Part shown: positions 3,168 to 25,851 of the stretch, one piece after another | Numbering within the stretch: position 1 is the stretch's first letter | Layout: every line of letters starts with the position of its first letter | Assembly (NCBI GenBank): GCA_026392355.1 | Contig: JAPLCF010000030.1 | Coordinates: forward strand, 522,259-586,258 | Length of the DNA: 64,000 nucleotides | Source: Actinomycetota bacterium | GTDB taxonomy: Bacteria; Actinomycetota; Thermoleophilia; Gaiellales; F1-60-MAGs149 | Direction of reading: 5' to 3' | Notes under the pieces: model-generated | Told to the model about the DNA's origin: nothing | Database searches by the model: none | Seen by the model: the letters and a program-made list of their open reading frames with translations, nothing else | Program-made: the position numbers and the translations under genes

Positions 3168-3170
3168 CGC

Positions 3171-4196: not shown

Positions 4197-4263
4197 GCCG
4201 AGAGGCGCGGGTGCCCCACTCGCCGCGCCGAAGCGCGACGAGTGGGGTTGATCACCGTGCGGT

Positions 4264-6027
4264 CTACTTGCCGTCCTTCAAGAAGTACGAGCCGAAGTAG
4301 AACTGCTTGCCGGGGCCCCAGACGTAGTTGCCCAGGCGCTCCGAGACGAACGAGATCTTGCGACGCAGGTCCAGCGTGGCCCACGGTGCAAGATTCGTTG
4401 CCGTGTCGGTCGAGAGCTGCGCGAACTGCGCGGTGCGATCGGCACCGGGCGGCAGCTGATTGATCTCGTTGACCTTGGCGTCGAAGGCCTTGTCGCAGAA
4501 CTGTCCGTAGTTCGAGCCCTGGCCGCAGAGCAGCAGCGGGCCGTAGTACGTGATCGCGTCACCGTAATCCTGACCCCATGCAGCAACGCCAATGTCGTAG
4601 TCGCTCTTGGGGTCGGCGAGGAAGCCGTAGTACACGTCGGCCGACAGCGCCTTGACGGTGACCTTGAAGCCAACCGCCTCGAGCTGCTCCTTCATCGCTG
4701 CCGAAACCTGCGGCGACGGAGCGTCGGAGAAGTTCGCCAGCGTGATGTCGATCGGGGTCTTCACACCCGACTCGGCAACCAGCGCCTTGGCCTTCTCGAC
4801 GTCCATCGTGTAGATGTCGGTCGGCTGATCCGCCAGGAGGTTCTCCGAGAGGATCTGACTCCACGGCGAGCGGCTCAGCTTGCCGCCGATGACCTTGACG
4901 ATGGCGTCACGGTCGAGGGCATAGTTGACCGCCTGGCGGAGCTTAAGGTTGTCGAACGGCGCCTTGTCCGTCTTGAAGACGGCGTAGTCCACGGCGGCGT
5001 CCGGCGTCGAGAAGAACCGATCCTTGTACTGCGGATCGTTCGCCGTAGCGGGGATCTGCGAGCCGATCGGTGCCGAGCCGTCGAACGTCATGTCGATCTC
5101 GTTCGACTTCAGCTGTGCGTACTGGGTCTCGTCCGGCACACCGATCTGCAGATCGATGCCGTCGATGTTGTTGTCGGTCTCCGCCTGCGGGACGCCGGCA
5201 GCGACGTTCTTGTCCCAGCTGGGCTCGCGCTCGATCGTGACCGACTTGTCGAGCTGGTAGTCACTGATCTTGTACGGGCCGACGAACGGCGGCGGGGTGT
5301 CGCTCTTCTTGTGCGGCGTGGAGGCCGGCACGATGAAGGCCCAGCCCATTGCCAGGGCGCGCGGGAACGAACCGTCGGCGTCGGTCAGCGTGAACGACGT
5401 CGTCAGATCGTCAACAGCCTTGATGCCGCTGATGCCGATGTTGTTCTTGCCCTTGGACTTCGTCATCGCGTCGGAGTACTCCGACATGCCGACGATGTCC
5501 GCGTAGTAGCCCGAGGCCGGCGGTCCGCCGGTCGCGCACTGGATGTTCGGGTCGAGGATGTACTCGTACGTGGCCTTCACGTCCTTCGCCGTGACGGGCG
5601 AGCCATCCGGGAAGGTCAGACCCTCGCGTAGCTTGACCGTGTAGGTCTTGCCGTCTGCGGAGACGCTCGGCATGTCGGCGGCGAGCTCCGGCTGCATCTC
5701 GTCCGTCGCGGGCGAGGCAACCGTGTTCGGGTAGCCGTAGAGGCCGCGGGCCATGAAGTAGAAGACCGACCACGAGATGCCGTAGTAGGACAGGCCGTTC
5801 CAGCAGTCGATGTTGCTGTTCATTGCCATCTTCAGCGTGCCGCCCTTGGTGGGCGTTTCTGTGGCCGGGAAGCCGCCGTTCAGATAGTCGCCGCCGGCCG
5901 CAGCAGTGTCACTGCCTCCGCCGCCGGAACTCGTCGAGCTCGAGCTACCGCTCGAGCCACAGGCCGCGGCAACGATGGCAATTGCCACCAGCGCTGCTGC
6001 CATCAGCAGATAACGGAGCTTCTTCAC
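4264..6027 (-). CDS. ABC transporter substrate-binding lipoprotein, family 5 (peptide/nickel type)
   Basis: Lipoprotein signal MKKLRYLLMAAALVAIAIVAAAC followed by a Ser/Gly linker. Its 587-aa size and sequence resemble DppA/OppA-type binding proteins. Confidence 0.88.
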   Translation of the reverse strand: MKKLRYLLMAAALVAIAIVAAACGSSGSSSSTSSGGGGSDTAAAGGDYLNGGFPATETPTKGGTLKMAMNSNIDCWNGLSYYGISWSVFYFMARGLYGYPNTVASPATDEMQPELAADMPSVSADGKTYTVKLREGLTFPDGSPVTAKDVKATYEYILDPNIQCATGGPPASGYYADIVGMSEYSDAMTKSKGKNNIGISGIKAVDDLTTSFTLTDADGSFPRALAMGWAFIVPASTPHKKSDTPPPFVGPYKISDYQLDKSVTIEREPSWDKNVAAGVPQAETDNNIDGIDLQIGVPDETQYAQLKSNEIDMTFDGSAPIGSQIPATANDPQYKDRFFSTPDAAVDYAVFKTDKAPFDNLKLRQAVNYALDRDAIVKVIGGKLSRSPWSQILSENLLADQPTDIYTMDVEKAKALVAESGVKTPIDITLANFSDAPSPQVSAAMKEQLEAVGFKVTVKALSADVYYGFLADPKSDYDIGVAAWGQDYGDAITYYGPLLLCGQGSNYGQFCDKAFDAKVNEINQLPPGADRTAQFAQLSTDTATNLAPWATLDLRRKISFVSERLGNYVWGPGKQFYFGSYFLKDGK

Positions 6028-6095
6028 GAGGTCTCCTCCTTGGTTGTGATCATTGGATCGGTGTCCTTTCGAGGGATGGGACAGAGTCAGGGCGA

Positions 6096-7070
6096 CTAGA
6101 GGATCGTTCCGCCACGGGGGTCGAGGGCGTCGCGGAGGCCATCACCGAGCAGGTTGAAGGCCAGCACCGTGACGACGAGCAGCGTGCCGGGGAACACCAT
6201 CAGGAAGGGTGCGTTGATGTAGAGACCGCCGGGCACGGCGTCCGAGATCATGCGCCCCCACGAGGGGATCTCCAGCGGTAGGCCGAAGCCAAGGTACGAC
6301 AACGCGGCCTCGGCGGCGATCGCGCCGGCCACGGACAGGCTGGCGTAGACCGTCAGCGGTCCGATTAGCTGCGGCATCAAATGCCGAAAGACGATCCGCG
6401 AGTTCGAGGCACCAAGCATCCGTGCGGCGGTGACGAACTCGCGGTTGCGGAGCGACAACACCTCGCCGCGGAAGATGCGCCCCGGATAGAACCAGGAGAA
6501 GAAAGCGATGATCAGGATTACGAACCAGAGTGAGGCGCCGAACGCAACCGACGCGGCGATCGCGAAGAGCAGAAACGGGAAGGCGGCGACGATGTCCATC
6601 AGACGCGCGATCACCGTGTCGGTCCAGCCGCCGACGTAGCCCGCGATGACGCCGAGCAGGAGCGCCACGACCATCGTCAGGATCGTCGCCACGATGCCAA
6701 TGATCAGCGAGGTGCGCGCACCGAAGGAGAGCTGCACGAGCATGTCGTAGCCGAGGTTGTTCGACGCCCCGAGCACAAAGCACGCGCGCTCCCCCACGCT
6801 GGCCAGGCCATTGACACAGCCATGCAGCGGCCCGACCGGCAACAGCGTGTAGTCATCAACACCGGTCGAGTTCGACTTGTTGACGGGATGCCCCGTCCAC
6901 GACTCAAACAGCGGTCCCGCCAGCGCAAACAGCACGAGCAGCACAATGAAGGCGAGACTGGCGAGGGCGACGTAGTCGCGACGCAGCCGAGCGAAGGCCA
7001 GCTGGCGTGGCGTGCGTGCCACAACCATCGCCTCGGTCTTCATGTCCTCGAACTGCTCGACGGTCGACAC
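6096..7070 (-). CDS. ABC transporter permease (DppC/OppC-like)
   Basis: Multi-TM protein with the motif REFVTAARMLGASNSRIVFRHLMPQLIGPL. The start is placed at the GTG (VSTVEQFED) behind GGGAGG. The maximal ORF would extend to 7103. Confidence 0.85.
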   Translation of the reverse strand: MSTVEQFEDMKTEAMVVARTPRQLAFARLRRDYVALASLAFIVLLVLFALAGPLFESWTGHPVNKSNSTGVDDYTLLPVGPLHGCVNGLASVGERACFVLGASNNLGYDMLVQLSFGARTSLIIGIVATILTMVVALLLGVIAGYVGGWTDTVIARLMDIVAAFPFLLFAIAASVAFGASLWFVILIIAFFSWFYPGRIFRGEVLSLRNREFVTAARMLGASNSRIVFRHLMPQLIGPLTVYASLSVAGAIAAEAALSYLGFGLPLEIPSWGRMISDAVPGGLYINAPFLMVFPGTLLVVTVLAFNLLGDGLRDALDPRGGTIL

Positions 7071-7178
7071 AGGGTCCACCTCCCTCAGCGCGATAGGGTA
7101 CACCGAAACCGCACCACGCGTTCGGGCAATCCGCTTAACCGTGCGGCAAAACTCGCACGTTTGAGAGGTTACCCCGCG

Positions 7179-8060
7179 CTACGAGATAGCGTCAGCGCCG
7201 GCGACGACCTCGAGCAGCTGCTGCGTGATCTCGGCCTGGCGGGCACGGTTCATGTCGAGCGTGAGACGGTCGATCAGATCCTTAGCGTTGTCCGACGCAC
7301 TGCGCATGGCGGTCATGCGGGCACCGTGCTCGGAGGCAGTCGATTCGAGCAGCGCGCGAAAGATCTCGGTCTCGAGTGCCGTGGTGAGCAGCGGCCCCAG
7401 CATCGTCTCGGCCTCGGGCTCGAAGAGCAGCTCGCCGGAAACGGCGGCCTTGCCCTCCGTCGCGGCCGCGGCCGCGGGCAGCGGAATCGGCAGCACCTCA
7501 TCGGCATGCACCGTCTGCACGAGCGGCGAGTCGAAGTGGTTGAACACCATGATCAGGCGATCGAACTCGCCTTCGCCGTACTGCTCGATCAGCGTGTTGG
7601 CAATCTGCTCGGCGTCCTGGTAGATCGGACGATCGGTGAAGCCCGACCACACCTCGCGCAGCTCGGCGCCGCGGAAGCGCAGCGATCCAGCGCCCTTGCG
7701 ACCTGCGGCGTACCAGACGATCTCACGACCGGCAGCGCGCTCAGCAGCGGCCTCATCGATTGCGCGGCGCAGGACGCTCGCGTTGAAGGCACCCGCCAGA
7801 CCACGATCGCCCGACATCAGCAGGATCGCGGTCTTGGTGATCTTGCGACGCTCAAGGAGCGGCTGACCACCAAGCGAGCCGGTCCGGCTCGCGGTCTCGG
7901 AGATCAGCTCGTGCATGCCATCGGCGAACGGGCGGAGCGACTCGATGCGAACCTGCGCGCGGCGCAACTTCGCACCGGCGACGAGCTCCATCGCCTTGGT
8001 GATCTTGCTCGTGTTCTTGACGGAATGGATCCGCCGACGGATGTCCTGAAGGGACGCCAC
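7179..8060 (-). CDS. atpG: F1 ATP synthase subunit gamma
   Basis: MASLQDIRRRIHSVKNTSKITKAMELVAGAKLRRAQ... and C-terminal ...LDMNRARQAEITQQLLEVVAGADA are typical of gamma. Confidence 0.95.
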   Translation of the reverse strand: MASLQDIRRRIHSVKNTSKITKAMELVAGAKLRRAQVRIESLRPFADGMHELISETASRTGSLGGQPLLERRKITKTAILLMSGDRGLAGAFNASVLRRAIDEAAAERAAGREIVWYAAGRKGAGSLRFRGAELREVWSGFTDRPIYQDAEQIANTLIEQYGEGEFDRLIMVFNHFDSPLVQTVHADEVLPIPLPAAAAATEGKAAVSGELLFEPEAETMLGPLLTTALETEIFRALLESTASEHGARMTAMRSASDNAKDLIDRLTLDMNRARQAEITQQLLEVVAGADAIS

Positions 8061-8063
8061 GGT

Positions 8064-9596
8064 CTACGCGGTTGCCCCTGCGGTGGTCGCCGAACCCTGG
8101 AAACCAGCGGCGAACTGCTCGACCGCGGCCTTCAGCTTGGCCACCGTGTCATCGGACAGATCGAGCGACTCGCGGATGCCCGCGAGCACCGTCTTCTCGG
8201 CACGCAGCGACTGACGGAGGCCGTCGTTGAAACGCGACACGTCGTCGACGGCGATGCCGTCGACGTGACCGTTCGTCGTTGCCCAGATGACTGCGACCTG
8301 CTCCTCGATCGGCCACGGGTCGTACTGGTTCTGGTTGAGCGTCTTGACGAGACGCTGGCCGCGGTTGATCTGCGCCAGCGTGGCGGCGTCAAGCTCGGAG
8401 GCAAACTGCGCGAACGCCTCAAGGGCGCGGAACTGCGCGAGCTCCAGCTTCAGGCGGCCGGCGACCTTCTTCATCGCCTTCGTCTGGGCGTTCGAGCCGA
8501 CGCGCGACACGGACAGGCCGACGTTGATGGCCGGGCGAACGCCCTGGAAGAACAGGCTCGTCTCCAGGAAGATCTGACCGTCGGTGATCGAAATGACGTT
8601 GGTCGGGATGTACGCCGACACGTCACCGGCCTGCGTCTCGATGACGGGCAGTGCCGTCAGGGAGCCGCCGCCGAGCTCGTCGCTCAGCTTGACCGCGCGC
8701 TCGAGCAGACGCGAATGCAGGTAGAAGACGTCGCCCGGGAAGGCCTCGCGACCAGGAGGACGACGCACGAGCAGCGACATCTGACGGTAGGCGTCGGCCT
8801 GCTTGGTCAGGTCGTCGTAGACCACGAGCGCGTGGCCGCCCTTGTAGAGGAAGTACTCGCCCATCGCGCAACCGGCGTACGGGGCGATGTACTTGATCGG
8901 TGCGGCCTCGGAGGCGTTGGCGGCCACGACGATCGTGTACTCCATGGCGCCGTGCTCGCGAAGCTTCTCGACGACCTGCGCGACCGTCGAGGCCTTCTGG
9001 CCGACGGCGACGTAGACGCAGATGACGCCCGAGTCCTTCTGGTTAATGATCGTGTCGATCGCGACCGCGGTCTTACCGGTCTGGCGGTCGCCGATGATCA
9101 ACTCGCGCTGGCCACGGCCAATCGGCACCAGGGCGTCGAGCGCCTTCAGGCCGGTCTGGAGCGGCTGGGTGACCGGCTGGCGGTCGACGACACCAGGCGC
9201 CTTGAACTCGAGCGAGCGCTCTTCGGTGGTCACGATCGCCGGGCCGCCGTCAATCGCCTGGCCGAGCGGGTTGACGACGCGGCCGATCAGCGACTCGCCG
9301 ACGGGGACGCTCATGACCTTGCCGGTGCGGCGGACGGTGTCGCCCTCGCGAATCTTCTGCCACTCACCGAAGAGCACGACGGCGACGTTGGACTCCTCCA
9401 GGTTGAGGGCGAGGCCGGTCACGCCATGGGGCAACTCGAGCATCTCGAGCGCGATGCAGCGCTCAAGGCCGTAGACGCGGGCGATGCCGTCGCCGACCTG
9501 GATGACGGTGCCGATCTCCTCGACGTCGGCGGTGTCCTCGAACCCGCTGATCTGGTTCTTGAGGATGGATGCGATCTCGTCGGGATTCAGCTTCAC
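8064..9596 (-). CDS. atpA: F1 ATP synthase subunit alpha
   Basis: [16 protein letters not shown]..., Walker [20 protein letters not shown]; 510 aa. Confidence 0.97.
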
Positions 9597-9612
9597 GGTT
9601 CTCTCCGTCTAT

Positions 9613-10155
9613 CTAGGCGGTCGGGATGCGGGCGGCGCGCAGATCGCGGCCGAGCAGGTCGAGGCGACGACGCAGGGATGCGTCGACGAGGCGGTCACGG
9701 ACGCGAAGGACCACGCCGCCGAGGATGGTCGGATCGACGGTGCGATCCATGGTTACAGTCAGGCCAGTTGCCGAGGCGAGCTGCTGCTGCACCTTGTCGG
9801 CGGTGGCATCGTCGATGGCGACAGCAGTCGTCAATTCAACGGCGAGCTCGTTGCGATCGAGGCGTACGCGATCGGCGAACGCCTCCTGGATAGCGGCCAG
9901 ATCGCCAAGGCGACGATGGTCGAGCAGCACCTGCAGGAAGCGCGCGACGAGCGGGTCGTCGCCCTTCGCGAGAGCGGCGAGCAGATTGCTCTTGCCCTCG
10001 CCGCGGACGGCCGGGTTCGTGAGTGCACGAGCCAGCGCCGGGTTCTCGCGGACAGCGTCCGTGATCTCGGCCAGCTCGCCGTCCACCTCGTTGAGGCGGC
10101 CGGCTTCGGCAGCGGCGTTGTACAGCGCCGTGGCGTACGGGGTAGCAGCGCTCAC
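9613..10155 (-). CDS. atpH: F1 ATP synthase subunit delta (OSCP)
   Basis: 180 aa, located between atpF and atpA, with an OSCP-like C-terminus (DPTILGGVVLRVRDRLVDASLRRRL). Confidence 0.85.
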   Translation of the reverse strand: MSAATPYATALYNAAAEAGRLNEVDGELAEITDAVRENPALARALTNPAVRGEGKSNLLAALAKGDDPLVARFLQVLLDHRRLGDLAAIQEAFADRVRLDRNELAVELTTAVAIDDATADKVQQQLASATGLTVTMDRTVDPTILGGVVLRVRDRLVDASLRRRLDLLGRDLRAARIPTA

Positions 10156-10157
10156 GC

Positions 10158-10697
10158 TTACTTCGCGTCTCCGTGCAGCGCGGAGAAGTCGACGCCCGCG
10201 AGCGCCTCTTCCACGAGCCGCTTCTGCTCGGCTTCGTTGAGCGCGTGCCCGAGCACCTTCTCGGTGGCGAGCAGCGTCAGGTCGGCGATCTCCGTCTTGA
10301 TGCGATCCAGCGACTGCTGGGTCTCGGCGGCGATCGCCTGCTGGGCGGCGGCAATACCCTTCTCCCGCTCAGCGGCGAGCTCATCGCTGAGCTGGCGCTG
10401 CTGCTCGGCAGCGGTCGTGCGCGCGCGCTCAAGGATGTCGGACGCCTCGTGGCGGCTCTTAGCGAGCTGCTCCTTGTACTCCCCGAGCAGGCGCTCGGCC
10501 TCCTCGCGGGCATGCTCCGCCGCTTCGAGGTTCTTGCGGACGGCGTCCCGCCGCTCGTCGAGCAGCGCGGCGATCTTCCCGAACGCGAACTTCTTCAGCA
10601 CGAAGAGCACGATCAGGAAGGTGACGAGCGTCCAGATGCTCAGCCCGAGCTCGGGCGTGATCAGACTGGCGTCGCTGGCGACTACGGCGGGCAGCAT
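10158..10697 (-). CDS. atpF: F0 ATP synthase subunit b
   Basis: A single N-terminal TM segment (LSIWTLVTFLIVLFVLKKFAF) followed by a long charged helix; position between atpE and atpH. Confidence 0.85.
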   Translation of the reverse strand: MLPAVVASDASLITPELGLSIWTLVTFLIVLFVLKKFAFGKIAALLDERRDAVRKNLEAAEHAREEAERLLGEYKEQLAKSRHEASDILERARTTAAEQQRQLSDELAAEREKGIAAAQQAIAAETQQSLDRIKTEIADLTLLATEKVLGHALNEAEQKRLVEEALAGVDFSALHGDAK

Positions 10698-10703
10698 CGT
10701 TCG

Positions 10704-10988
<285 letters not shown>

Positions 10989-11864
10989 TTAGTGGTGGGG
11001 CTCGATCGCCGAGCCGATGTAGATGCCCGAGAGCATCGCAAAGATGTAGGCCTGGAGCGACGCCACGAGGCCCCACTCGAAGATGTAGAAGGCAACGGCG
11101 ACCGGGATCGTGACCGGTGCGATGAACACGTTACCGAGCAGGATCACGAAGCCGACGCACATGATGATCAGCAGGTGACCACCGAGCATGTTGGCGAAGA
11201 GACGCACGCTCAGCGACACGATGCGGAGAATCTGCGAGAGCACCTCGAGAATGATCATCGCCGGCAGCAGGGCCTTGGGGGATGGCGGGACCCAGCTCTT
11301 GAAGTACGGGATGACGCCGTTTGCGCGAATGCCCTCGACGTGCGAGATCATCACCGTCACCAGGGTCAGCGTGAGCGTGACCGTCAGGTTCGACGTGACC
11401 GCGTAGATCGTGAGGCCCGGAATCGGCCCGATGAACGGATTGTGCGTGTCGAGCGGCAGCGGGATGAAGCTGATCATGTTGAGCACCCAGATGAACACGA
11501 ACAGCGAGGCGACGTACGGGAACCAGCGGACGTACGCGACCTTCGGCAGCGTCGCCTGACCGATGTTGGTCTCGGAGAAGGTGTAGAGCACCTCGACGAC
11601 GCTCTGGGTGCGCTTGGGATCCGTGCGGAGGCCGCCGCGGACGATCCAGAGCGTTAGGCCGACGGCGATCAGCACGGCTAGCCAGAGGTAGACAACGGCC
11701 TTCGAGATGCCGATCTCGATCGGGCCGAGCATGAACGACGCCCAATACGTGTTGATGAACTCCTCAACCGGCTTGAACTCGCTCCCCTCGCCAAAGGCGG
11801 CCAGCGGGAACACCAGCAGACCGACGAGGGTCAGAAGCGTCAGGCTGAGTCGTCGGCGGATCAA
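10989..11864 (-). CDS. atpB: F0 ATP synthase subunit a
   Basis: 291-aa polytopic protein with the conserved Arg helix LSVRLFANMLGGHLL. Confidence 0.93.
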   Translation of the reverse strand: MIRRRLSLTLLTLVGLLVFPLAAFGEGSEFKPVEEFINTYWASFMLGPIEIGISKAVVYLWLAVLIAVGLTLWIVRGGLRTDPKRTQSVVEVLYTFSETNIGQATLPKVAYVRWFPYVASLFVFIWVLNMISFIPLPLDTHNPFIGPIPGLTIYAVTSNLTVTLTLTLVTVMISHVEGIRANGVIPYFKSWVPPSPKALLPAMIILEVLSQILRIVSLSVRLFANMLGGHLLIIMCVGFVILLGNVFIAPVTIPVAVAFYIFEWGLVASLQAYIFAMLSGIYIGSAIEPHH

Positions 11865-12575: not shown

Positions 12576-13736
12576 TCAGGTGCGGGCGAAGGGCCGTGGG
12601 AGCGGCGCCTCGTCGGGCGCGGCCGCCTTGCGCAGCAGGCCGACCTTGCGCAGGTGCCCGTACTTGAGGATCTCGAGGGCGACGACGACGTAGTACGTCA
12701 CGGCCAGCGCGAGCAGGCCGAAGAGCGTCAGTCCGATCGTCGGCCAGAGGTTCCACGTGCCCTCCGTGCGGTACGGGAACAGGCGGATAGCGAGCGCGAA
12801 CGCGGCGAGCACGCCCGACCACGCGTAGAGCAATCCGACCGCCTGTCGCTGCGTAAACCCGACACGTAACAGCCGATGGTGGAAGTGGTTCTTGTCGGCG
12901 CTCGCGATCGACTGGCCCGACTTGAGGCGCTTGAGGATCACGAATGAGGTGTCGAGAATCGGCACGAGCAGCACGACCAGCGGAAAGACGAGTGACAGTG
13001 CCGCCGCGGTCTTCATCACGCCTTGGATCGAGACGCACGCCAGCAGAAATCCGAGTACGAGCGCGCCCGAATCGCCCATGAAGACCTTGGCGGGATTGAA
13101 GTTCCAGGGCAGAAAGCCGAGGCACGCACCCGCGATCGCGGCCGCCATCACGCCCGCCGAGATACGCCCGAGCGACAGCGCGAGAATCGCAAAGGTGATC
13201 GCGCTGATCGCGCAGACACCGGCGGCGAGCCCGTCCATGCCGTCGGCGAGGTTGACGACGTTGGCGACAGCGACGATGAAGATGATCGTCAGGGGGTACG
13301 CGAGGACGCCGAACGACAGCGTGCTCGGCGTGATGAACGGGATCGTGATCGAGTCGATCGTCATGCCGTGCGCGACGGGAATCGCCGCGCACGCAACCTG
13401 GCCGATGAACTTCGGGAGCGGCGGAATGCCGAAGCGATCGTCAAGCGCACCGAGCAGGCAGATCAACGCAGCGCCGAGCAGGATGAACTCGTAGCGCGCG
13501 TCGACGTCGACGTTCGGCAGAACGGCCGCGAGAATGCCGAGGAACATGGCGACGCCACCGAGCAGCGGGATCGGTCGGTCATGGATGCGCCGCCCGCCGG
13601 GCTTGTCGACCACCCCGAGGCGCCAGGCCGCGCGCATCATCACGGGCGTCAGCGCAAATGCCACGACGCCAGCGATGAGCAGCGCGTAGATCGCGGACGG
13701 CGCGAGGACAAGCCGGGAGAAGGCGTCGGGCACCAC
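12576..13736 (-). CDS. MraY/WecA-family polyprenyl-phosphate N-acetylhexosamine-1-phosphate transferase
   Basis: Contains LTPVMMRAAWRLGVVDKPGGRRIHDRPIPLLGG, DDRFGIP, VNLADGMDGLAAG and KVFMGDSGALVLGF. A wecA/rfe-like gene directly upstream of the atp operon matches actinobacterial synteny. The start is placed at a GTG downstream of the palindromic repeat; the longer ORF start (13844) lies inside repeat DNA. Confidence 0.85.
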   Translation of the reverse strand: MVPDAFSRLVLAPSAIYALLIAGVVAFALTPVMMRAAWRLGVVDKPGGRRIHDRPIPLLGGVAMFLGILAAVLPNVDVDARYEFILLGAALICLLGALDDRFGIPPLPKFIGQVACAAIPVAHGMTIDSITIPFITPSTLSFGVLAYPLTIIFIVAVANVVNLADGMDGLAAGVCAISAITFAILALSLGRISAGVMAAAIAGACLGFLPWNFNPAKVFMGDSGALVLGFLLACVSIQGVMKTAAALSLVFPLVVLLVPILDTSFVILKRLKSGQSIASADKNHFHHRLLRVGFTQRQAVGLLYAWSGVLAAFALAIRLFPYRTEGTWNLWPTIGLTLFGLLALAVTYYVVVALEILKYGHLRKVGLLRKAAAPDEAPLPRPFART

Positions 13737-13802
13737 GGACTCAGGGTACCGGTGGCGTGGGCGGACATGCCTGTCCACTCCACCGGTACCCTGAGTCCGT
13801 GG

Positions 13803-13902
13803 ATGCTCCAAAGGGGTCAGACCCTTTTGGAGCATGGTGCTCAATCAGAGCCCGCGATCAACCGCTCGGATGCTCCAAAAGGGTCTGACCCCTTTGGAGC
13901 AT
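13803..13902. repeat. paired 33-bp palindrome element, locus 1
   Basis: 13803-13835 is ATGCTCCAAAGGGGTCAGACCCTTTTGGAGCAT. 13870-13902 is its exact reverse complement, ATGCTCCAAAAGGGTCTGACCCCTTTGGAGCAT. A 34-nt unique spacer separates them. The same pair recurs at 40402-40508. Confidence 0.95.
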
Positions 13903-13932: not shown

Positions 13933-15073
13933 CTACCCCGCGTGGATCGAGCTGAAGCCACGCATGCCTGCGTACAGCGGGCGGGTGGCGAGAATCGACT
14001 CGATCTCACCGCGCAGCACGTCGAGGTCGGCGCTCTCGCTGACGGCCGATCCGATGATGCGACCGACGTTCGCGAAGTCGGCCTCGTCCAGGCCGCGCAT
14101 GGTGGCGGCCGGAGTGCCAATGCGGATGCCGCTCGTCTCCATCGCCGGGCGCGGATCGAACGGAATCGAGTTGCGGTTGACCGTGATGCTGATCGAGTGC
14201 AGTCGATCCTCGAGCTCCTTGCCGGAGAACGCGGCCTCCTGCAGGTCGAGCAGCACGAGGTGCGTGTCGGTGCCACCGGAGACGAGCTTGTTGCCGGTGC
14301 CGAGCAGTCCGTCAGCCAGTGCCTGCGCGTTGAGGCAGATCTGCTTCTGGTACTGCTTGAAGGCCGGGGTCGCGGCGATACCGAAGGCGACGGCCTTGGC
14401 GGCTACGCCGTGACAGAGGGGACCACCCTGCAGGCCCGGGAAGAGGCCGGAGTCGATCTTCTTCTGCCACTCCTCTTTGCAGAGGATGAAGCCCGCGCGC
14501 GGGCCGGCCAGCGACTTGTGCACGGTCGAGGTGACGACGTCGGCATACGGCACCGGGCTGGGGTGCTCGCCCGCGGCCACGAGGCCGGAGATGTGCGCCA
14601 TGTCGACCATGACATTCGCACCGACCTCGTCGGCGATCTCGCGGAAGGCGGCGAAATCGAGCGTGCGCGGATACGCGCTGGCGCCCGTGATGATCAGCTT
14701 CGGCTTGTGCTCGTGGGCGGCCTTGCGGACGTCTTCCATGTCGATCGTGCCGGTCTCGGGCGAGACGCCGTAGTGCACGAAGTTGTAGTCCGTAGAGGCT
14801 CTTGGCGCGCTCGATGGCCAGCGTCTCAATCTCGTCAACGACATCGCAGCCGCCGTAGTAGCGCTTGCCCGGATACCCCTCGGCGTACTTGTTGGTGGCG
14901 ACGCTGCCCACCGCCTCCATGACCGCCGGCCACGTGAAGTTCTCCGAGGCGATCAGCTCGAGCTCGTCGCGCTGGCGGTCCAGCTCGCGGTCGAGGAGGG
15001 CCGCGATGGCGGGATCGACTGCTTCGAGTCCAGCGGTGCGGAGGGTGTCGAGGGAGAGATCATTGATGGCCAT
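13933..15073 (-). pseudogene. glyA: serine hydroxymethyltransferase, disrupted (internal deletion of about 50 codons plus frameshift)
   Basis: The N-terminal frame (from the ATG at 15073) reads MAINDLSL...[56 protein letters not shown]. At 14790-14792 the SHMT sequence resumes in another frame as [14 protein letters not shown]...[14 protein letters not shown]...SGGTDTHLVLLDL... up to the stop at 13933. The conserved block that normally lies between ERAK.LFG and YN..PYGV is absent, including the HGGHLTHG loop. Confidence 0.8.
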
Positions 15074-15181
15074 GCGGCGGAGTGTACGCGTGGCGTGGGT
15101 TCCGGCAAGCATCACCAGCCCCTGTCAATCAGGTGACGCAGTGTGCAGCGCTGACATGCGCTGCCTGAAATGCGCTGCCGG

Positions 15182-16039
15182 TCAGGTTCGGCGCGCCGCC
15201 ACAACCCGGTCAACGCCCGCCAGGTCGCGGTGGCACACGACGTCAACGAATCCCGCAGCCTCGAGCAGGCCTCGCACTATGCCCGCCTGCTCGTCCGAGT
15301 TCTCCAGCACGATCATCCCGCCCGGATTGAGCAAGGCGAGCGCGTCGGCTACGAGCCGGCGGATCAGATCGAGACCGTCGACGCCGGCGTACAGCGCGAG
15401 GTGCGGCTCGTGGCGGACGACACCCTCTTCCGTGCGCGGGTCGCCGTCGGGGATGTAGGGCAGGTTCGCGGCGATCACGTCGAAGGTTCGCCCCACCACC
15501 GCGGCAGCAAGATCCGATTCCAACAGCTCAATCTCGACGCCGATGCGCTCCGCGTTCTCGCGCGCGAGCGCAAGCGCGTCAACGGAGAGGTCTACCGCCG
15601 TGACCGTCACGTCCGGCCGCTCGTGCTTGACCGCGATCGCAATCGCACCCGAGCCCGTGCCGACATCGAGCAGCGCGCCGCCTTTGCCCAGGTTGGCAAG
15701 TGCCACCTCAACCAGCGTCTCGGTCTCGGAGCGCGGCATCAGCGCCCGCGCGTCGGTCTTCAGCACCAGCCGATGAAAGCCCACCTCACCGAGGATGTAC
15801 GCCACCGGCTCAAGGTCGGCGCGGCGTCGCAGGAGCGGCCGAATTGCGTCGAGCTCGGCGGGCGTGACCGGGCGATCGTGATGCAGATACAGCTCGAGCC
15901 GATCGAGGTCGAGCACGCTGCCAATGAGCTTCTCGGCGTCGAGTCGGGCCGTCGGGATCCCCTTGGCGTTCAGGTACGCAGCCGACAGCGCGACGACGTC
16001 CTTGACGTTCTTCATGCCACCGGGCATGGCCTCAGCCAT
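15182..16039 (-). CDS. prmC: release-factor glutamine N5-methyltransferase (PrmC/HemK)
   Basis: SAM motif [14 protein letters not shown] and catalytic motif IAANLPYIP (an NPPY variant), immediately downstream of prfA. Start ambiguous (16039, 16027 or 16015). Confidence 0.85.
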
Positions 16040-17108
16040 CGGCGGAGGCGGCCTCGAGCTGCTGACGGTTCCAGTCGGCCTGGAGCGCGGAACTGAACGG
16101 CTCCAGCGCACCGAGCAGGACCGCGTCCATGTCGTGCGACGTGAACTTGATGCGGTGGTCCGTCACGCGGCTCTGCGGAAAGTTGTAGGTGCGGATCTTC
16201 TCGGAGCGGGCACCCGTGCCGATCTGCGACGTGCGGGTCGCAGCGCGTTCGGCATCGAGCCGCTCGCGTTCGGCCTCGTAGATGCGGGCGCGCAAAATCT
16301 TCATGGCGCGCTCGCGATTCTGCAGCTGCGAGCGCTCGTCCTGGCAGGCGACGACAACGCCAGTCGGCAGGTGCGTAATGCGCACGGCCGAGTCCGTCGT
16401 ATTGACGGACTGTCCGCCTGGACCGGTCGCGCGAAAGACGTCGATCTTGAGGTCCTTCTGATCGATCGTCACCTCGACCTCTTCTGCCTCGGGCAGCACG
16501 GCGACCGTCGCCGTCGACGTGTGGATACGTCCCTGCGTCTCCGTCGCCGGCACGCGCTGAACTCGATGGACGCCCGACTCCCACTTGAATGCGGAATACG
16601 CGCCGTCGCCGGTGATCTCAAACGAGACATCCTTGAGGCCGCCGGAGTCGGATGAATCACTCGTCAGTACCTGATGCTTAAAGCCGAGGCGATCGGCGTA
16701 GCCCGTCAGCATCTTGAAGAGATCGGCCGCGAACAGTGCGGCTTCTTCCCCACCCGTGCCACCGCGGATCTCAATGATCACGTTGCGATCGTCGGCCGGA
16801 TCGCGCTCGAGCATGGCGATGCGCAGCTCTTCCTCCAGCTCGGGCAGCTCGACCCGCGCGGACTCGAGCTCCTCTTGGAGGTAGGCGCGCACCTCGGGGT
16901 CGGACTCGCTCTCTAGGCCCTCCGTGGCATCGGTAACCGTCGCGGTCGCGGTGCGCCAGCGCTTGGCCAGCTCGTTGGCAGCCTGCAGGCGGCGATGCGT
17001 CCGCCCGACCTCGGCGAGGCGCTGATGATCCGCAAGAACAGCGGGGTCGGCGAGCTCCTGCTCGGTCTCCTCGAAGGATCGTTCGATCTGGGCGACGAGG
17101 CGTTCCAT
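16032..17108 (-). CDS. prfA: peptide chain release factor 1
   Basis: From [22 protein letters not shown]...; contains [25 protein letters not shown] (the GGQ motif) and [21 protein letters not shown]. The longer 477-aa ORF N-terminus is Arg/Pro shadow. Confidence 0.95.
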
Positions 17109-17146
17109 ACCTGCAGGGTACGCGGGAGCGCCCGCGCGCCGCGTCG

Positions 17147-18085
17147 TCAGGCCATGACGTCGACGGGAGCGTCGGCACGGCGCTGGCGATTGAACGCCTC
17201 GCGCTCGAGGACGGCGTCGAGCGCGGCGACCGCGACTTCGAGATGCTCGGTGTCGGCCGGGCGGGTCGTCAGACGCTGCAGCAGCAGGCCCGGCCACAGC
17301 ACCGCGTGGATGATCGGGTTGTGGCCGTAGCGGCCCGCCAGGCGGATCACCTCGTACGCGATGCCGGCGATCACGGGCACGAGCAGGATCCGCGACAGGA
17401 TCAGCAGCCAGAGATCCGGACGGCCGACGAAGGCGAACACGACGATCGCGATCACCATCACCCACAGGAGGAAGGCGGTCCCGCAGCGCAGGTGGATGCG
17501 CGAGTGCCGGGCCGCCGCCTCCGCAGTGCGCGGGTCACCCGCCTCGAGTGCGTTGATAGCCATGTGCTCGGCAGCATGAAACTCGAACACGCGGCGCAAG
17601 TCGGGCAGCAACGTCAGAAACAACAGATAGCCGATGAACAGGCTGACGCGGATCACGCCCTCGACGACGACAAAGAGGACGGTGTCGTCGATCGGCAGAA
17701 AGTTCGCCACCACGCTGGGCACGACCTTGAAGATCGCGATACTGAAGGCCACCGCCACCACCAGCGCGATGATGATCTCCTTGCGGCCGAGCTCCTCCTC
17801 CGCCTCACCGTCACCGCGCTCCTCGCCCTCGTGCCCGTGATCACTCGACGACAGGCGCGCCGCCAGCGACAGCGCCTTCATGCCGATCGCGAGCGACTCG
17901 CCGAGCGCGACAACGCCACGCACGACGGGCCAGCGCAAGACGGGCGAGCGCAACGCGACAGAGCGCTGATCCTCCACGACCGTCGTAATGCGGCCATCCG
18001 GACGTCGAACCGCGACGGCCCACGCCGACGGGGTCCGCATCATCACGCCCTCGACAACGGCCTGCCCACCAACGGACTGGCTCAT
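17147..18085 (-). CDS. DUF1385-type membrane protein (YqhQ-like)
   Basis: [19 protein letters not shown]..., [12 protein letters not shown]..., and C-terminal TM segments. The position between rpmE and prfA is typical for this family. Confidence 0.75.
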
Positions 18086-18104
18086 CGCCTGCTCCCGATC
18101 CCGA

Positions 18105-18311
18105 CTAGGACGAGGCCTTGGCGCGGCGCTTGTTGAAGCGCTCCACGCGACCGCCGACGTCAATCAGCTTCTGCGTGCCCGTGTAGAACGGATGGCAGGC
18201 CGAGCAGAGCTCGACGCTGTAGTCGCCCTTCGTCGAGCGCGTCTCGAACGAGTTCCCACAGGAACACGTGATCGTCACGACGGGGTACTCGGGATGCGTA
18301 TCTGCCTTCAT
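18105..18311 (-). CDS. rpmE: 50S ribosomal protein L31
   Basis: [62 protein letters not shown]. Confidence 0.93.
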
Positions 18312-18438
18312 CGCGCGGCACCGTAGCACGACGTTTGCGGCGGCCACGCCGTACCCACCCACGAGGGCGGCACAAGTGTGCCCTTGACTTCTTATCTTCG
18401 TAGTGGTTTGCTCGTCACACCATTAGACGGGAGGGGTC

Positions 18439-19929
18439 ATGGCAAGTCATCCATCCGGTGAGCGATTCACCGTAGAACTCGAGAAGGGCACCAACTGGTG
18501 GGGCGCCTTCGTGATCGGCCTGGCGGGCACGATCCTCGTGATCGGCCTCGCGGGCTATGCCCTGCTGGCACTCGGCGGCGTGGCGATCACGCTGTTCATC
18601 GTGCTCACGCTGGTCGGCGTGTTCCTCTGCTTCTGTCTGGCCGAACTCGCGGCCGCCTTCCCCGACCGCGCCGGCGGGTTGCCGTCGTACGCGTTCGAGA
18701 CCTTCAAGCCCTGGGGTAGTTCAGCGTCAGAGCACATCGGCGGTCTCAGCTCGTGGGCGTACTGGCTCGGCTGGTTCACCGTCGCGCCGATCAACGCCTA
18801 CCTCGCCGCGCTCTACATCACCGACCTGTTCGGAATCCCGCTCGGGTCGACGTACGGACCGATTTCCGACAAGTTTGGGTCGGCCTGGTCGGTCGGCGTG
18901 CTCGTCACCGCCGCAGTCATCCTCGTGGTGATCTTTGTCCCAGGCTGGCTCGGTATCCGGCTCGGCGCGACCTTCGCGACCGTGCTTGGCATCGGTTCGA
19001 TCATCCCACTCGTGTTGATCATCGTGCTCCCGTTCTTCCACCCATCCTCGATCGACTTCGGCAACGTGCAGCTGACGACGCTGCCCGAAGGCGTCACCGG
19101 CTCGTGGCAGCTGATCATCGGCTGGGCGTTCATCTTCACCTGGACCGTCTGGGCGATGGAGGCCGCGGCGTGCTACATCGGTGAGTGTCGCGAGCCCGCT
19201 CGCGACGCCAAGATCGCGATGACGGCGGAGGGCCTGTTCGGCCTGTTCGTCTACATCACCCTGCCGCTGATGCTCCTGGCCGTGCTGGGTACTGCTGGTT
19301 TTGCCGCGCTCGGCTCGGGCGACGCGAACGTCGTGTTCCTCGGCTACGTCGACAAGATCTTCGGCACCAACGAGTTCTGGCGCTGGTTCGTCGGCCTCGC
19401 GCTCGTGGCAGCGCTGCTCCTGTCGGTGCTCAACGCCCTGATCGGCGCGTCGCGCGGTCTCTGGCAGAACTCGGTCGACGGCGTGTTGCCGAAGATCTTC
19501 GCCAAGACCAACAAGCACGGCTCTCCCAGCACCGCGATCATCCTGTCGCTGGTCGCCTCGCTGCTCGTGCTCTTGGTGGGCTCGCCGCTGCAGATCTACG
19601 TGTTCTCCAACATGGGCTACCTGTTCGCCCTGTCGGTCGCCATGATCGGCTTCGGTGTCTTCCGCTACAAGCGGGACGACTTCCCGCGGCCGGTCAAGAT
19701 GCCGAAGATCATGGCGCCCCTCGCGATCCTCTTCGGCGTGGCAGGCCTCCTACTGTGGGCGATCGGCGGCTACTTCTCCGCCGACTACGCAGTCGGCGAG
19801 GGCTACCGCTGGCTCTACTGGGTCGGTCTGATTCTGCTCGCCCTCTACGTACCGCTGCACCTCTGGCGCCGCGTCGAGGACAAGCGCCATGGGCAACCCA
19901 CCCCGCACCACGTGGATCATCCCCACTGA
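18439..19929 (+). CDS. APC-superfamily amino acid/amine permease
   Basis: 496 aa with about 12 TM segments and N-terminal APC-like features (GTNWWGAFVIGLAGTILV..., CLAELAAAFPDRAGGLPSYAFE). Confidence 0.85.
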   Translation: MASHPSGERFTVELEKGTNWWGAFVIGLAGTILVIGLAGYALLALGGVAITLFIVLTLVGVFLCFCLAELAAAFPDRAGGLPSYAFETFKPWGSSASEHIGGLSSWAYWLGWFTVAPINAYLAALYITDLFGIPLGSTYGPISDKFGSAWSVGVLVTAAVILVVIFVPGWLGIRLGATFATVLGIGSIIPLVLIIVLPFFHPSSIDFGNVQLTTLPEGVTGSWQLIIGWAFIFTWTVWAMEAAACYIGECREPARDAKIAMTAEGLFGLFVYITLPLMLLAVLGTAGFAALGSGDANVVFLGYVDKIFGTNEFWRWFVGLALVAALLLSVLNALIGASRGLWQNSVDGVLPKIFAKTNKHGSPSTAIILSLVASLLVLLVGSPLQIYVFSNMGYLFALSVAMIGFGVFRYKRDDFPRPVKMPKIMAPLAILFGVAGLLLWAIGGYFSADYAVGEGYRWLYWVGLILLALYVPLHLWRRVEDKRHGQPTPHHVDHPH

Positions 19930-20517: not shown

Positions 20518-21885
20518 ATGACCGTGGCACAGCCCAAGAACAAGGAAGAGGCCCGTCGCCGAGCAAAGGCTGACGGCATCGAGTTCTTCTTCGCCCAGTT
20601 CGTCGACATGCACGGCAAGCCGAGCGCCAAGCTCGTCCCCGCCGAGCGCATCGACATGCTGTTCGACGATGGCGCAGGCTTCGCCGGCTTTGCCGCCGGC
20701 CCGATCGGCCAGACGCCCGCCTCGCCGGACATCGCGGCGATTCCGGATCCCGAGTCCTACACCCCCGTGCCGTTCAAGCCCGGTCTCGCGCGCTTCGCCT
20801 GCGACATCACGATCGACGGCGATCCGTGGAACTTCTGCCCGCGCACGATCCTCAAGAACGCCAACGCCCGCGCAGCGAAGATGGGCTACCGCCTGAAGAT
20901 GGGCATGGAGCTCGAGTTCTTCCTGCTCAAGGAGCGCGACGGCAAGATCGTCCTGGCGGACGACCTCGATACGCTCGACCAGCCCTGTTACGACATGAAG
21001 GGCATCACGCGGTCGTACGACTTCATCTCGCAGCTGTCGAAGAACCTCAACGGGCTCGGCTGGGGCAACTACGCCAACGACCACGAGGACGCCAACGGCC
21101 AGTTCGAGCTGAACTTCGAGTACGACGACGCGCTCAAGACGGCCGACAAGGCGATCTTCTTCCGCTACATGGTCCACGCCATGGCGCAGGAGCGCGGTCT
21201 GCTGACGACCTTCATGCCGAAGCCGTTCTCGAACCTGACGGGCAACGGTGGCCACCTCCACATCTCGCTGTGGGATCCGACCGGCAAGAAGAACCTGTTC
21301 GAGGATAAAAAGGATCCGCGCGGCCTCGGCCTGTCCAAGCTCGCGTACCAGTTCCTCGGCGGCATCATCGACAACTCCGAGGGCCTCAGCGCGATCCTCG
21401 CGCCGACGGTCAACTCGTACAAGCGCATCGGCGTCGGCGCACCCACCTCGGGCGCCACGTGGGCCCCTGCTTACGCCACGTACGGCATGAACAACCGCAC
21501 GCAGTCGATCCGCATCCCGGCCCCGGGACGCATCGAGATCCGCTCGACCGACGGTGCAGCCAACCCGTACCTGGCCGCCGCGGCGATCATCGGCTGCGGC
21601 CTCGACGGCGTCGCCAACAAGGCCAATCCGGGCGAGCCGAACCTCGACAACCTGTACGATCTGTCGCCGGCGCAGATCAAGCGCAAGCGCATCAAGACGC
21701 TGCCCGCGAACCTGCTCGACGCCACGCGCGCCGCGCAGAAGAACAAGGCGCTGCGTGATTGGCTCGGCAGCATGGACGGCTGGGACTACCTCGACTACTT
21801 CGTCGAGACGAAGCAGGCCGAGTGGCAGGAGTACCACACGACCGTCAGCGATTGGGAGCTCAAGCGCTACCTCACGCTGTTCTAG
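20518..21885 (+). CDS. glutamine-synthetase-fold gamma-glutamyl ligase (GlnA/GmaS/PuuA-like)
   Basis: 455 aa, with GGAGGAG 6 nt upstream of the ATG. GS catalytic-domain motifs: MGMELEFFL, NDHEDANGQFELNFEY, FMPKPFSNLTGNGGHLHISLW, NSYKRI, NRTQSIRIP, EIRSTDGAANPYL. Confidence 0.9.
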   Translation: MTVAQPKNKEEARRRAKADGIEFFFAQFVDMHGKPSAKLVPAERIDMLFDDGAGFAGFAAGPIGQTPASPDIAAIPDPESYTPVPFKPGLARFACDITIDGDPWNFCPRTILKNANARAAKMGYRLKMGMELEFFLLKERDGKIVLADDLDTLDQPCYDMKGITRSYDFISQLSKNLNGLGWGNYANDHEDANGQFELNFEYDDALKTADKAIFFRYMVHAMAQERGLLTTFMPKPFSNLTGNGGHLHISLWDPTGKKNLFEDKKDPRGLGLSKLAYQFLGGIIDNSEGLSAILAPTVNSYKRIGVGAPTSGATWAPAYATYGMNNRTQSIRIPAPGRIEIRSTDGAANPYLAAAAIIGCGLDGVANKANPGEPNLDNLYDLSPAQIKRKRIKTLPANLLDATRAAQKNKALRDWLGSMDGWDYLDYFVETKQAEWQEYHTTVSDWELKRYLTLF

Positions 21886-21894
21886 GACACAGGG

Positions 21895-21929
21895 GTGACG
21901 GAGATGCACCACGAGTGTATCTCCGTCAC
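21895..21929 (+). terminator. 11-bp stem hairpin after the GS-like gene (weak terminator or attenuator)
   Basis: GTGACGGAGAT-gcaccacgagtgt-ATCTCCGTCAC, beginning 10 nt after the stop. No U-tract follows. Confidence 0.35.
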
Positions 21930-22108
21930 ACCCGCAGTCCCGTTCCCCGAGGAGCATCGGCGCTACGCATGTGCAGCACGACCATATGGTTGTGATCCGT
22001 CATGTGACGGTGCCCCATGCCATCACCCCGCTGGTGCGGTAGCCTTTCTCCCAAGAACAGGTGGATCACCCACCGCCCAGAGGATGTTCCATCGAGGAGG
22101 AGACCGTC

Positions 22109-23479
22109 ATGGCGGTTGCAGTTGAGAGCGCGAAGGCCGGACTTGATCCGATGTTCAACCCGGATTGGTTTCTGACCGACGAGGAGAGGGCGCTGCGCGA
22201 GCAGTTGATCGAGATCTGCGAGAAGGAGATCCGTCCCCGCGCCGCCCAAAACGACCGCGAGCTGATCTTTCCTCGCGAGAGCCTCGAGGCGCTCGGCCCG
22301 TTCCTCGGCCTGACGCTGCCCAAGGAATGGGGCGGCCTCGGCCAGGGTCACGCGATGCTCGTCGCCACGACCGAGACGATTGCGCGCTACGGCTGCGCCT
22401 CCACCGCCATGTGTTACACGATGCACATGGGCGCGGTTGAGTCCCTTCGCCTGACCGCCACCGAGTGGCACACGGAGAACGTCCTCAAGAAGATCGTCTC
22501 CGACAAGCTGATCGGCACCCTTTCGTTCTCCGATCCGGAGACTGGCTCGCACTTCTGGTACCCGATCTCGTCCGGCGCCCGCAAGGTCGAGGGCGGCTAC
22601 GAGGTGCTGAAGAAGGCGTCGTGGACGACGTCCGGCGGCTTCGCCGACTGGTACGTCCTGCAGACGACGTCGCCGGAGTTCAAGGCCTACTCGGACCTGA
22701 CCTGCTGGCTCGTCTTCAACGACGAGGTCGAGTCGGGCCACGCCGAGTGGGACGCCATGGGCCTGCGCGGCAACCAGTCTGGTTCGCTGCTGCTCGACTG
22801 GAAGCTCCTCGGCGAGGAGCGCATGGTCGGCGCGATTGGTGATGGCGCCTGGGCCAACGACGAGGCGGTCGATCCGTTCTTCCTGATCTCCTCCAGCGCC
22901 TGCTGGAGCGGCATCGCGCTTGGTGCGATCGACATCTGCATCCAGCACACGACCCGCAAGGTCCACAAGGACGTCGGCATGCGCGTCTGCGACTACCCGA
23001 CGATTCAGGACTCCGTCGGCGAGGCGATCATCGACACGAACGCCATCCGCTGCATGAACTACTCGATCGCCGCCGCCATGGACAACGTGACGGATAACGG
23101 CCAGCGCACGCTCGAGCAGTCCGAGTACGCCCGCGGCAACTACCTCCACTGGCTCTGGCAGCTCAAGTTCGCCTCGGCCAAGAACTGCGGCCTCGTCGTC
23201 GACGAGATGATGCACTCCGCCGGTGGCACGTCGTACAAGAAGTCGCCGCTCGAGCTGGAGCGCTTCGTCCGCGACGGCAAGGCCGGCTGGGTGATGGGCC
23301 CGACGAACGAGGTCCTGCGCCAGTTCGTCGGCAAGACCGCCCTGCTGGGCATGGAGTCGCTCGACTACTGGAACCAGGTCGTCAACGAGCGCTCGATCAA
23401 GAACGAGACCAAGAAGATGACGCCCGAGCAGAAGAAGGCGCTCGCCGAGGAACTCCTCGCCGAGGCCGCGCAGGGCTAG
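22109..23479 (+). CDS. acyl-CoA-dehydrogenase-fold flavoprotein lacking the canonical catalytic Glu (oxidase/monooxygenase-like)
   Basis: From MAVAVESAKAGLDP (GAGGAGGAG upstream). ACAD-like N-terminal, middle and C-terminal domains are visible (LTLPKEWGGLGQGH..., GTLSFSDPETGSH..., WDAMGLRGNQSGSL...). Where ACADs carry (I/V)YEG(T/S)xE, this protein reads VMGPTNEV. Confidence 0.8.
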   Translation: MAVAVESAKAGLDPMFNPDWFLTDEERALREQLIEICEKEIRPRAAQNDRELIFPRESLEALGPFLGLTLPKEWGGLGQGHAMLVATTETIARYGCASTAMCYTMHMGAVESLRLTATEWHTENVLKKIVSDKLIGTLSFSDPETGSHFWYPISSGARKVEGGYEVLKKASWTTSGGFADWYVLQTTSPEFKAYSDLTCWLVFNDEVESGHAEWDAMGLRGNQSGSLLLDWKLLGEERMVGAIGDGAWANDEAVDPFFLISSSACWSGIALGAIDICIQHTTRKVHKDVGMRVCDYPTIQDSVGEAIIDTNAIRCMNYSIAAAMDNVTDNGQRTLEQSEYARGNYLHWLWQLKFASAKNCGLVVDEMMHSAGGTSYKKSPLELERFVRDGKAGWVMGPTNEVLRQFVGKTALLGMESLDYWNQVVNERSIKNETKKMTPEQKKALAEELLAEAAQG

Positions 23480-23492
23480 TTCGCAACGTCAA

Positions 23493-23538
23493 GGCCCCCT
23501 GGCTGCACCGCATCGCGGTGCAGCCAGGGGGCCTTTTT
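23493..23538 (+). terminator. rho-independent terminator
   Basis: 19-bp perfect stem GGCCCCCTGGCTGCACCGC-atc-GCGGTGCAGCCAGGGGGCC followed by TTTTT. Confidence 0.85.
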
Positions 23539-23554
23539 CGTTGTGGGACCAGAC

Positions 23555-23936: not shown

Positions 23937-23966
23937 GGCGAGATCCGGGGCCCTAACGTCGAGGCC

Positions 23967-25637: not shown

Positions 25638-25851
25638 CGTTTTGACTCTCTCCTCCGTGGCATGTCTGACGGGAACCTACAGTGATCACCCGCCCCTTGC
25701 GCCGCCCACATAGAATGCAGAAACGGCGCTGAGAAGAGGCTACAGCCCGCGAACTACACGATCAGGGGTAGTACGTACAGCAAACACCGCCCCTAGTGTG
25801 TATACCTTCCACAATGCACGGCCTAAATACGCCCCCTACCCTTAACCCACT

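Follow-up and report, generated by a model that had tools for sequence, protein, structure and literature searches.

The window, meaning the whole 64-kb stretch of DNA that was analysed, contains on its minus strand a glyA gene for serine hydroxymethyltransferase (SHMT). Translation showed that the gene is in two pieces in different frames, the N-terminal part running from an ATG at 15073 and the C-terminal part from base 14789 (Table 1). The N-terminal part comprises 95 SHMT residues starting with MAINDLSL, and its last codon is left incomplete at base 14790. The frame of the C-terminal part opens at the adjoining base, is coding down to base 13936 and ends in LYAGMRGFSSIHAG; the PLP-lysine motif sits within this fragment. 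Neither fragment has an internal stop codon in its own frame. The N-terminal fragment does not lead into the frame of the C-terminal fragment and is instead followed by an out-of-frame tail, for which a search of the protein collection gave no true homologue. The C-terminal fragment is held within a mechanical ORF of 303 codons. This ORF is predicted only, and any product would lack SHMT residues 1-147. An exact look-up of its product in public assemblies returned no record, and neither did exact look-ups of AtpE and AtpF.

Table 1. Features of the glyA locus and of the surrounding DNA, in window positions.
Feature	Position	Strand	Remarks
glyA N-terminal fragment	14790..15073	-	Start codon 15071-15073; 94 full codons plus the first 2 nt of the Gly95 codon
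glyA C-terminal fragment	13933..14789	-	Last 2 nt of codon 147, codons 148-431 and stop; stop codon 13933-13935
Deletion junction	14789..14790	-	155 nt of all relatives missing between these bases; blunt, zero microhomology
Read-through tail of the N-terminal ORF, out of frame	14312..14789	-	158 codons, non-SHMT; stop codon 14312-14314
ORF with N-terminal part and tail	14312..15115	-	From the ORF list
Mechanical 303-aa ORF holding the C-terminal fragment	13933..14844	-	18-residue out-of-frame leader; ATG at 14844
prmC, upstream neighbour, intact	15182..16111	-	Pfam PrmC_N and MTS; same order in L085, L086, L088 and L094
Family-4 glycosyltransferase (WecA/Rfe-like), downstream neighbour, intact	12576..13844	-	Pfam Glycos_transf_4; 97% identity to the L084 orthologue
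Five-gene peptide-type ABC transporter between atpG and atpD	OppC-like 6099-7103; binding protein 4267-6027; OppB-like 3174-4196; two ATPases 1180-3167	-
Methylamine (N-methylglutamate) gene set, complete-looking	20518-38331		Two GS-like genes 20518-21882 and 36937-38331; soxD/A/G/B-like genes 25846-30497
fhs	23970-25637
GATase, GXGXG and glutamate-synthase-like mgsABC genes	33711-36879
GAF-PucR regulator adjoining the methylamine set	38537-40396

An earlier note on this DNA, made from the sequence without database searches, had described an SHMT gene that has lost about 50 internal codons and carries a frameshift. Our analysis bears this out: 155 nt are missing, and the gene matches the Pfam SHMT family (PF00464) in two blocks in two frames. 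The N-terminal part aligns to profile positions 1-79 (E=4e-33) and the C-terminal part to positions 142-399 (E=7e-98), so the gap is also present in the profile alignment, where positions 80-141 are unmatched between the two blocks. The intact relative P0189 gives one continuous match over positions 1-399. SHMT structures in the PDB match the window gene in the same two blocks as Pfam, the second block starting at residue 140 of E. coli GlyA (1dfo) and at residue 135 of the Geobacillus enzyme, and the two fragments joined together match 3PGY with E=7e-125. The C-terminal part, which had been given as 285 residues, is a normal SHMT C-terminus, but that count includes an Asp created at the junction, and the ancestral residues number 284.

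DNA alignments (blastn/megablast) place the size of the gap at exactly 155 nt, or 51 codons plus 2 nt. Lost are codons 96-146, the last base of codon 95 and the first of codon 147, and the frame is shifted; in L084 the corresponding segment occupies 8681-8835. The gap corresponds approximately to residues 88-139 in E. coli GlyA numbering. The comparison set consisted of 11 contigs from at least 8 samples (L081, L084-L088, L090, L092, L094, L082 and L083), at 86-96% nucleotide identity, and all 11 keep the 155 nt at the same place. The same offset is seen with more distant loci, including L082, L083, L002 and L003. In the first homology search the full-length relatives had 428-431 residues, the best cluster representative being P0001 at 94% identity; L081, which is the DNA of P0001, shows one 155-nt gap against the window and no other. 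The segment is kept by 114 of 114 full-length homologues with lengths of 425-436 residues, and the close intact relatives have an SHMT of 431 residues. At the amino-acid level, the N-terminal fragment is 100% identical to residues 1-95 of the intact proteins P0189, P0196 and P0198, and the C-terminal fragment is 98.2% identical to P0189 residues 148-431. Because the E. coli, Bacillus and human enzymes all have the block, the difference reflects a loss from the window, not a gain by the others.

The gene lies in a conserved housekeeping block, as the earlier note had recognized. In the direction of transcription, the order on the minus strand is L31, DUF1385, prfA, prmC, glyA, the family-4 glycosyltransferase, atpI, atpB, atpE, atpF, atpH, atpA and atpG, and the order L31, DUF1385, prfA, prmC, glyA, glycosyltransferase and atp genes is common to the window and to L084-L088, L090, L092 and L094. 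These contigs come from ENA, JGI and NCBI samples and are syntenic with the window at 90-96% DNA identity. The ten close syntenic contigs were found through members of the P0001 cluster and through an identical L31 protein, and all ten are intact. The members of the P0001 cluster carry the source names ‘Thermoleophilia bacterium’ and ‘Gaiellales bacterium’. Synteny and the top identity to the syntenic copy establish that the locus is an orthologue by descent of the housekeeping glyA of Thermoleophilia/Gaiellales-type MAGs. Both immediate neighbours of glyA are intact; the true start of the glycosyltransferase is probably near 13760.

Several other features of the neighbourhood were observed. 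A 35-nt near-perfect palindrome, GGATGCTCCAAAGGGGTCAGACCCTTTTGGAGCAT, and its near reverse complement are located at 13801-13835 and 13868-13902, after the glyA stop codon. A second inverted pair of this palindrome is located at 40404-40432 and 40478-40506, after the PucR-type regulator gene. The copies in these pairs are ~67-74 nt apart, the pairs lie in two intergenic spacers, and none is expected by chance; in translation the palindrome appears as a recurring peptide, ‘LQKGLTPLEH’. The pairs resemble a REP/BIME-type doublet or a bidirectional terminator element of the genome. The pair after glyA is context and no part of the lesion. Between prmC and the start of glyA lies a spacer of 108 nt with two tandem 14-mers, CTGACATGCGCTGC and CTGAAATGCGCTGC (plus strand, 15151-15178), which have no Rfam match and could be an operator-like repeat. 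The ATP synthase operon (window 1-11864, minus strand) is interrupted: atpB, E, F, H, A and G are found at 11864..7179 and atpD only at 1-837, with the ABC transporter genes in between. An OppC-like gene also follows atpG in L084 (region 15523-19692), L007 and L010, and there is a weak binding-protein match at this place in L008. In Solirubrobacterales and Firmicutes loci, atpD directly follows atpG.

A second copy of the deletion allele was not present in any public contig or protein call found. The out-of-frame tail, used as a protein query, indicated that the allele is absent from 5.8 billion protein clusters. A pattern scan of metagenomes returned two contigs only, at 86% identity, and in a scan of genome contigs the best match among the matches listed was 68-71% identical. 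No shortened SHMT of this type was found among 8000 scored homologues. Within the 64-kb window, only chance matches were obtained for a displaced copy of the lost segment and for a second SHMT.

Of five features that define a functional SHMT, the window gene lacks three. It has no continuous match to the SHMT profile in one frame. The glycine-rich loop H-G-G-H-L-T-H-G with the PLP-stacking histidine is absent; the relatives have LDHGGHLTHGH within the gap, so the earlier note was correct in listing this loop as lost. The phosphate loop P-H-[SA]-G-[SA]-Q-A-N is likewise absent, the relatives having QPHAGAQAN within the gap. We take the A/S-G-x-Q-A-N loop of the lost block to be the PLP phosphate binder, from the E. 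coli structure. The remaining two features are present. The N-terminal catalytic/inter-subunit motif Y-A-E-G-Y-P-G-x-R-Y-Y-G-G is in the N-terminal fragment, and the Schiff-base lysine motif T-x-H-K-[ST]-L is in the C-terminal fragment, where it aligns to TTTHKTLRGPRGG of 3PGY and 1KKJ; the PLP-lysine context is thus retained, as had been claimed. The PLP-stacking histidine, which follows two conserved glycines, is invariant in bacterial SHMTs (PMC6294363).

Since both PLP loops are missing and the frame is interrupted, the locus is predicted to be incapable of giving an active SHMT. A ribosome that begins at the normal start would make 95 residues of SHMT and then 158 of nonsense. No credible start would be in phase with the 284 codons of the C-terminal part, among them the one for the Schiff-base lysine. 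Judged from its coding sequence the locus is a null allele, and a restored frame would still leave it without both PLP loops. Programmed frameshifting at the junction, or two cooperating fragments, could be imagined to give a functional protein, and both fragments are indeed stop-free in their own frames. However, 51 residues including the PLP-binding loops are missing, and repair of the frame cannot bring back activity (PMC6294363). By sequence reading, there is no slippery motif at the junction CUC-UAC-GGA-C; no Rfam family matches anywhere in the window, and no such short SHMT is known among the scored homologues. We regard a functional product as extremely unlikely. No promoter or terminator consensus was matched around glyA, and with no Rfam match in the window a leader RNA or recoding signal was rejected.

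The aligned relatives define the breakpoints precisely. With a slash at each breakpoint, the undeleted sequence of L084-L087 reads AAGAGCCTCTACGG/CGCCGAGCAC...TCGAGCAAGT/ACTACAACTTC, and the relatives around the breakpoints have CTCTACGG/CGCCGAG...GCAAGT/ACTACAAC. L081 differs in having GGCAGAAC right after the left breakpoint (GG/GGCAG). In an alignment of six sequences including the window, the breakpoints in L084-L087 are GG/CGCCG and CAAGT/ACTAC, with 0 nt common to both. With no base in common, the deletion can be placed in one way only, and microhomology is absent. The earlier note had read D-Y (GACTAC) on both flanks and had proposed either a microhomology deletion or the collapse of a repeat in assembly. 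Neither proposal survives the comparison with relatives. In ten contigs (L081, L084-L088, L090, L092, L094 and L082), the left flank codes for G-A-E-H and the right flank for K-Y-Y-N, and GACTAC is absent from the proximal side. The GAC at the junction, which encodes the D of DYNF, consists of the second G of the Gly95 codon and the AC of the Tyr codon; it was made by the junction and is not ancestral. Since there is no repeat at the breakpoints, a repeat-driven assembly collapse has no substrate.

Other origins of the junction were considered and rejected. A near-repeat, CG[C/T]CGAGCA, is found at both ends inside the deleted segment, and slippage on it would remove ~143 nt and keep one copy, which is not observed. 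A hairpin-bypass deletion or polymerase jump is not favoured, as the fold of the undeleted segment is no more stable than that of shuffled sequence (z=0.28). A chimeric join of two lineages is not favoured either, as both flanks order the relatives identically by identity. If the deletion took place in the cell, the blunt, zero-microhomology junction would suggest illegitimate or end-joining repair of a double-strand break and not slippage between repeats. Such a junction is no positive signature of any one natural mechanism.

Both halves of the gene are under strong purifying selection. The dN/dS ratio is 0.05-0.08 for both fragments (Nei-Gojobori, against L081 and L082). Among eight close relatives, the codons unique to the window are synonymous in 17 cases and change the residue in 2 (F206V and G277A), which compares with 24 and 2 for the intact L088, whose branch is about as long. 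Compared with 114 full-length homologues, the window deviates at 2 of 169 highly conserved columns, one of which is the junction residue, and the mean deviation of the other sequences at highly conserved columns is 1.4. No further stop or indel was found in either glyA fragment. With no decay besides the deletion, any real inactivation must be very recent. The deletion event itself would be very recent, as both halves are still gene-like and strongly constrained. The absence of secondary decay fits an assembly artefact equally well.

These data also bear on the view that the pseudogene is old and that its lineage gave up SHMT for the N-methylglutamate pathway, Fhs and other routes. The gmaS-like, mgsABC-like and soxBDAG/mgd-like genes and fhs in the window are consistent with this view. 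However, every relative with the same neighbourhood whose sequence reaches glyA has an intact 431-aa SHMT, and L084, L086, L088 and L090 carry the adjacent GS-like gene yet have an intact SHMT. The low dN/dS, the 17 synonymous against 2 non-synonymous changes and the lack of any additional stop or indel are also difficult to reconcile with old age. We consider an old pseudogene very unlikely, and both the intact relatives and the signs of selection contradict an old, lineage-wide loss of glyA.

We see two credible readings of the glyA lesion, neither of them exotic: one strain lost the gene very recently, or the assembly is in error. With no great confidence, we lean towards a recent, strain-specific 155-bp deletion in a syntenic housekeeping glyA that is present in the sequenced DNA. 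This reading is supported by the exact same gap against 11 contigs, by a consensus that is clean elsewhere and by flanks that are not chimeric. Because there is no repeat at the breakpoints, there is no false k-mer path, and a contig with the junction would imply reads with the junction. The window contains no N. A frame plot based on codon-position GC revealed no other same-strand frame switch off gene boundaries in the 64 kb. When the 50 other ORFs were compared with Pfam, 45 gave complete domain matches (one cut by the window end) and five were without a family. The alignment to L084, over ~20 kb, has no further large indel apart from the 100-N scaffold gaps of L084 itself. A generally sloppy assembly was rejected, as the frame plot and the Pfam matches show no other disrupted gene.

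An artefact of assembly, scaffolding or consensus, with the organism keeping an intact 431-codon glyA, is a serious possibility to which we give somewhat less than an even chance. It could have arisen by a gapless join of two contigs that end inside the most conserved part of the SHMT gene, by a low-coverage long-read consensus that took over a deletion from one read, or by a minority or chimeric molecule becoming the consensus path. In its favour are the lack of decay, with constraint equal to that of intact relatives, and the fact that no public relative found shares the allele, all close ones being intact. In sister scaffolds from similar samples, 100-N gaps are located beside glyA (L084, 8287-8386; L092, 5425-5524). 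Broken SHMT calls turn up often in public long-read MAGs: P0121-P0136 match SHMT only over their first 90-230 residues. L004, L007 and L072 have split matches to atpA and atpG. The missing block is also the most conserved stretch of glyA, where assembly graphs of co-occurring strains may tangle. Several observations weigh against an artefact. No repeat or microhomology is available to mislead a k-mer or overlap assembler. The window has neither an N nor another frameshift or large indel in 64 kb, or in ~20 kb against L084. The other frameshifted SHMT calls break at varied positions, and none has an internal gap of ~51 residues.

Two related patterns were seen in the public sequences. Among the ENA ‘METAG-scaffold’ relatives, gaps of 100 N are found, besides the two given above, at 18566-18665 in L084, 6003-6102 in L090 and 262-361 in L091; of all the gaps in these relatives, two lie within prmC, immediately upstream of glyA. 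Scaffolds of relatives often break no more than a few hundred bases from glyA, as in L084 and L092. The repeated gaps suggest that the neighbourhood of glyA is hard to assemble where several close relatives co-occur. Housekeeping genes split by frameshifts also occur in public long-contig MAGs, in L002 (glyA), L004 (atpA), L007 (atpG) and L072 (atpA and atpG); together with P0121-P0136 they give an impression of the frequency at which sequencing error produces broken glyA models.

The window also provides a metabolic context for the preferred reading, a real and recent deletion. Beyond prfA are genes for an amino-acid permease, a glutamine-synthetase-like protein and an acyl-CoA dehydrogenase, then fhs, soxD/A/G/B-like genes, mgsABC-like genes and a second GS-like gene of the gmaS type. 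Pfam scans of these genes agree with the claim that an N-methylglutamate route and fhs are encoded in the window. If SHMT is lost, C1 units could still reach tetrahydrofolate through N-methylglutamate dehydrogenase and formate-THF ligase, whose genes lie at a distance of 9-24 kb. The cell would need outside glycine, another glycine route or a second glyA elsewhere. The presence in the window of Fhs and of a methylene-THF-forming N-methylglutamate dehydrogenase makes a real SHMT null metabolically plausible.

Studies of other bacteria provide a background for such a loss. E. coli glyA mutants are described as glycine auxotrophs (PMC9769978). A glyA deletion mutant of Listeria grows when given glycine, and Fhs or the glycine cleavage system fills its C1 pool; Fhs alone can sustain the pool in rich medium, and at least one of the three routes, SHMT, Fhs and the glycine cleavage system, is essential (PMC13489624). 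The window could thus be imagined to come from a natural SHMT-null actinobacterium, in which the deletion is real and fixed in a free-living population and affects the only glyA. Such an organism would be a glycine auxotroph or use another route to glycine, and would obtain C1 units from methylamine and formate and not from serine. We consider this combination unlikely.

A real deletion would catch an uncultured actinobacterial lineage of soil or freshwater very soon after the loss of a near-universal enzyme of C1 and amino-acid metabolism, and the organism would then depend on a second gene copy or on glycine from outside. It would also be a small natural case of the known redundancy of SHMT, Fhs and other C1 routes. 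If the lesion is an artefact, it cautions against reading metabolism from one clean lesion in a metagenome-derived sequence. For annotation, the locus should be flagged as disrupted, and absence of SHMT should not be inferred for the organism without a check of the reads.

Comparison with known systems places the locus among disrupted genes. The window gene has the T-x-H-K lysine motif in common with the GlyA family (PF00464; 1DFO, the Geobacillus enzyme 1KKJ and the S. aureus enzyme 3PGY). In contrast to the family, it lacks the profile positions noted above and is out of frame, making it a disrupted copy. The laboratory glyA nulls of E. coli and Listeria monocytogenes show that loss of SHMT alone is tolerated, and the window has both fhs and a methylene-THF-yielding cluster. 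Those nulls were engineered, whereas the lesion in the window is known from environmental sequence alone. A closer parallel is the fhs gene of L. monocytogenes EGD-e (lmo1877), which is split by a small frameshift and can be reverted by a 4-nt insertion (PMC13489624). As in the window, a C1 gene is divided into N- and C-terminal ORFs in one strain and is intact in relatives. However, the window glyA has lost 155 nt of essential coding sequence, so reversion is impossible. The frameshifted SHMT calls P0121-P0136 also resemble the window gene, with an SHMT N-terminus followed by an out-of-frame tail. These are known as protein calls, and their breaks are at varied positions with no gap of ~51 residues, whereas the window shows a clean loss in an otherwise error-free consensus. 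The glyA lesion is one more disrupted gene or gene model, and no new kind of system.
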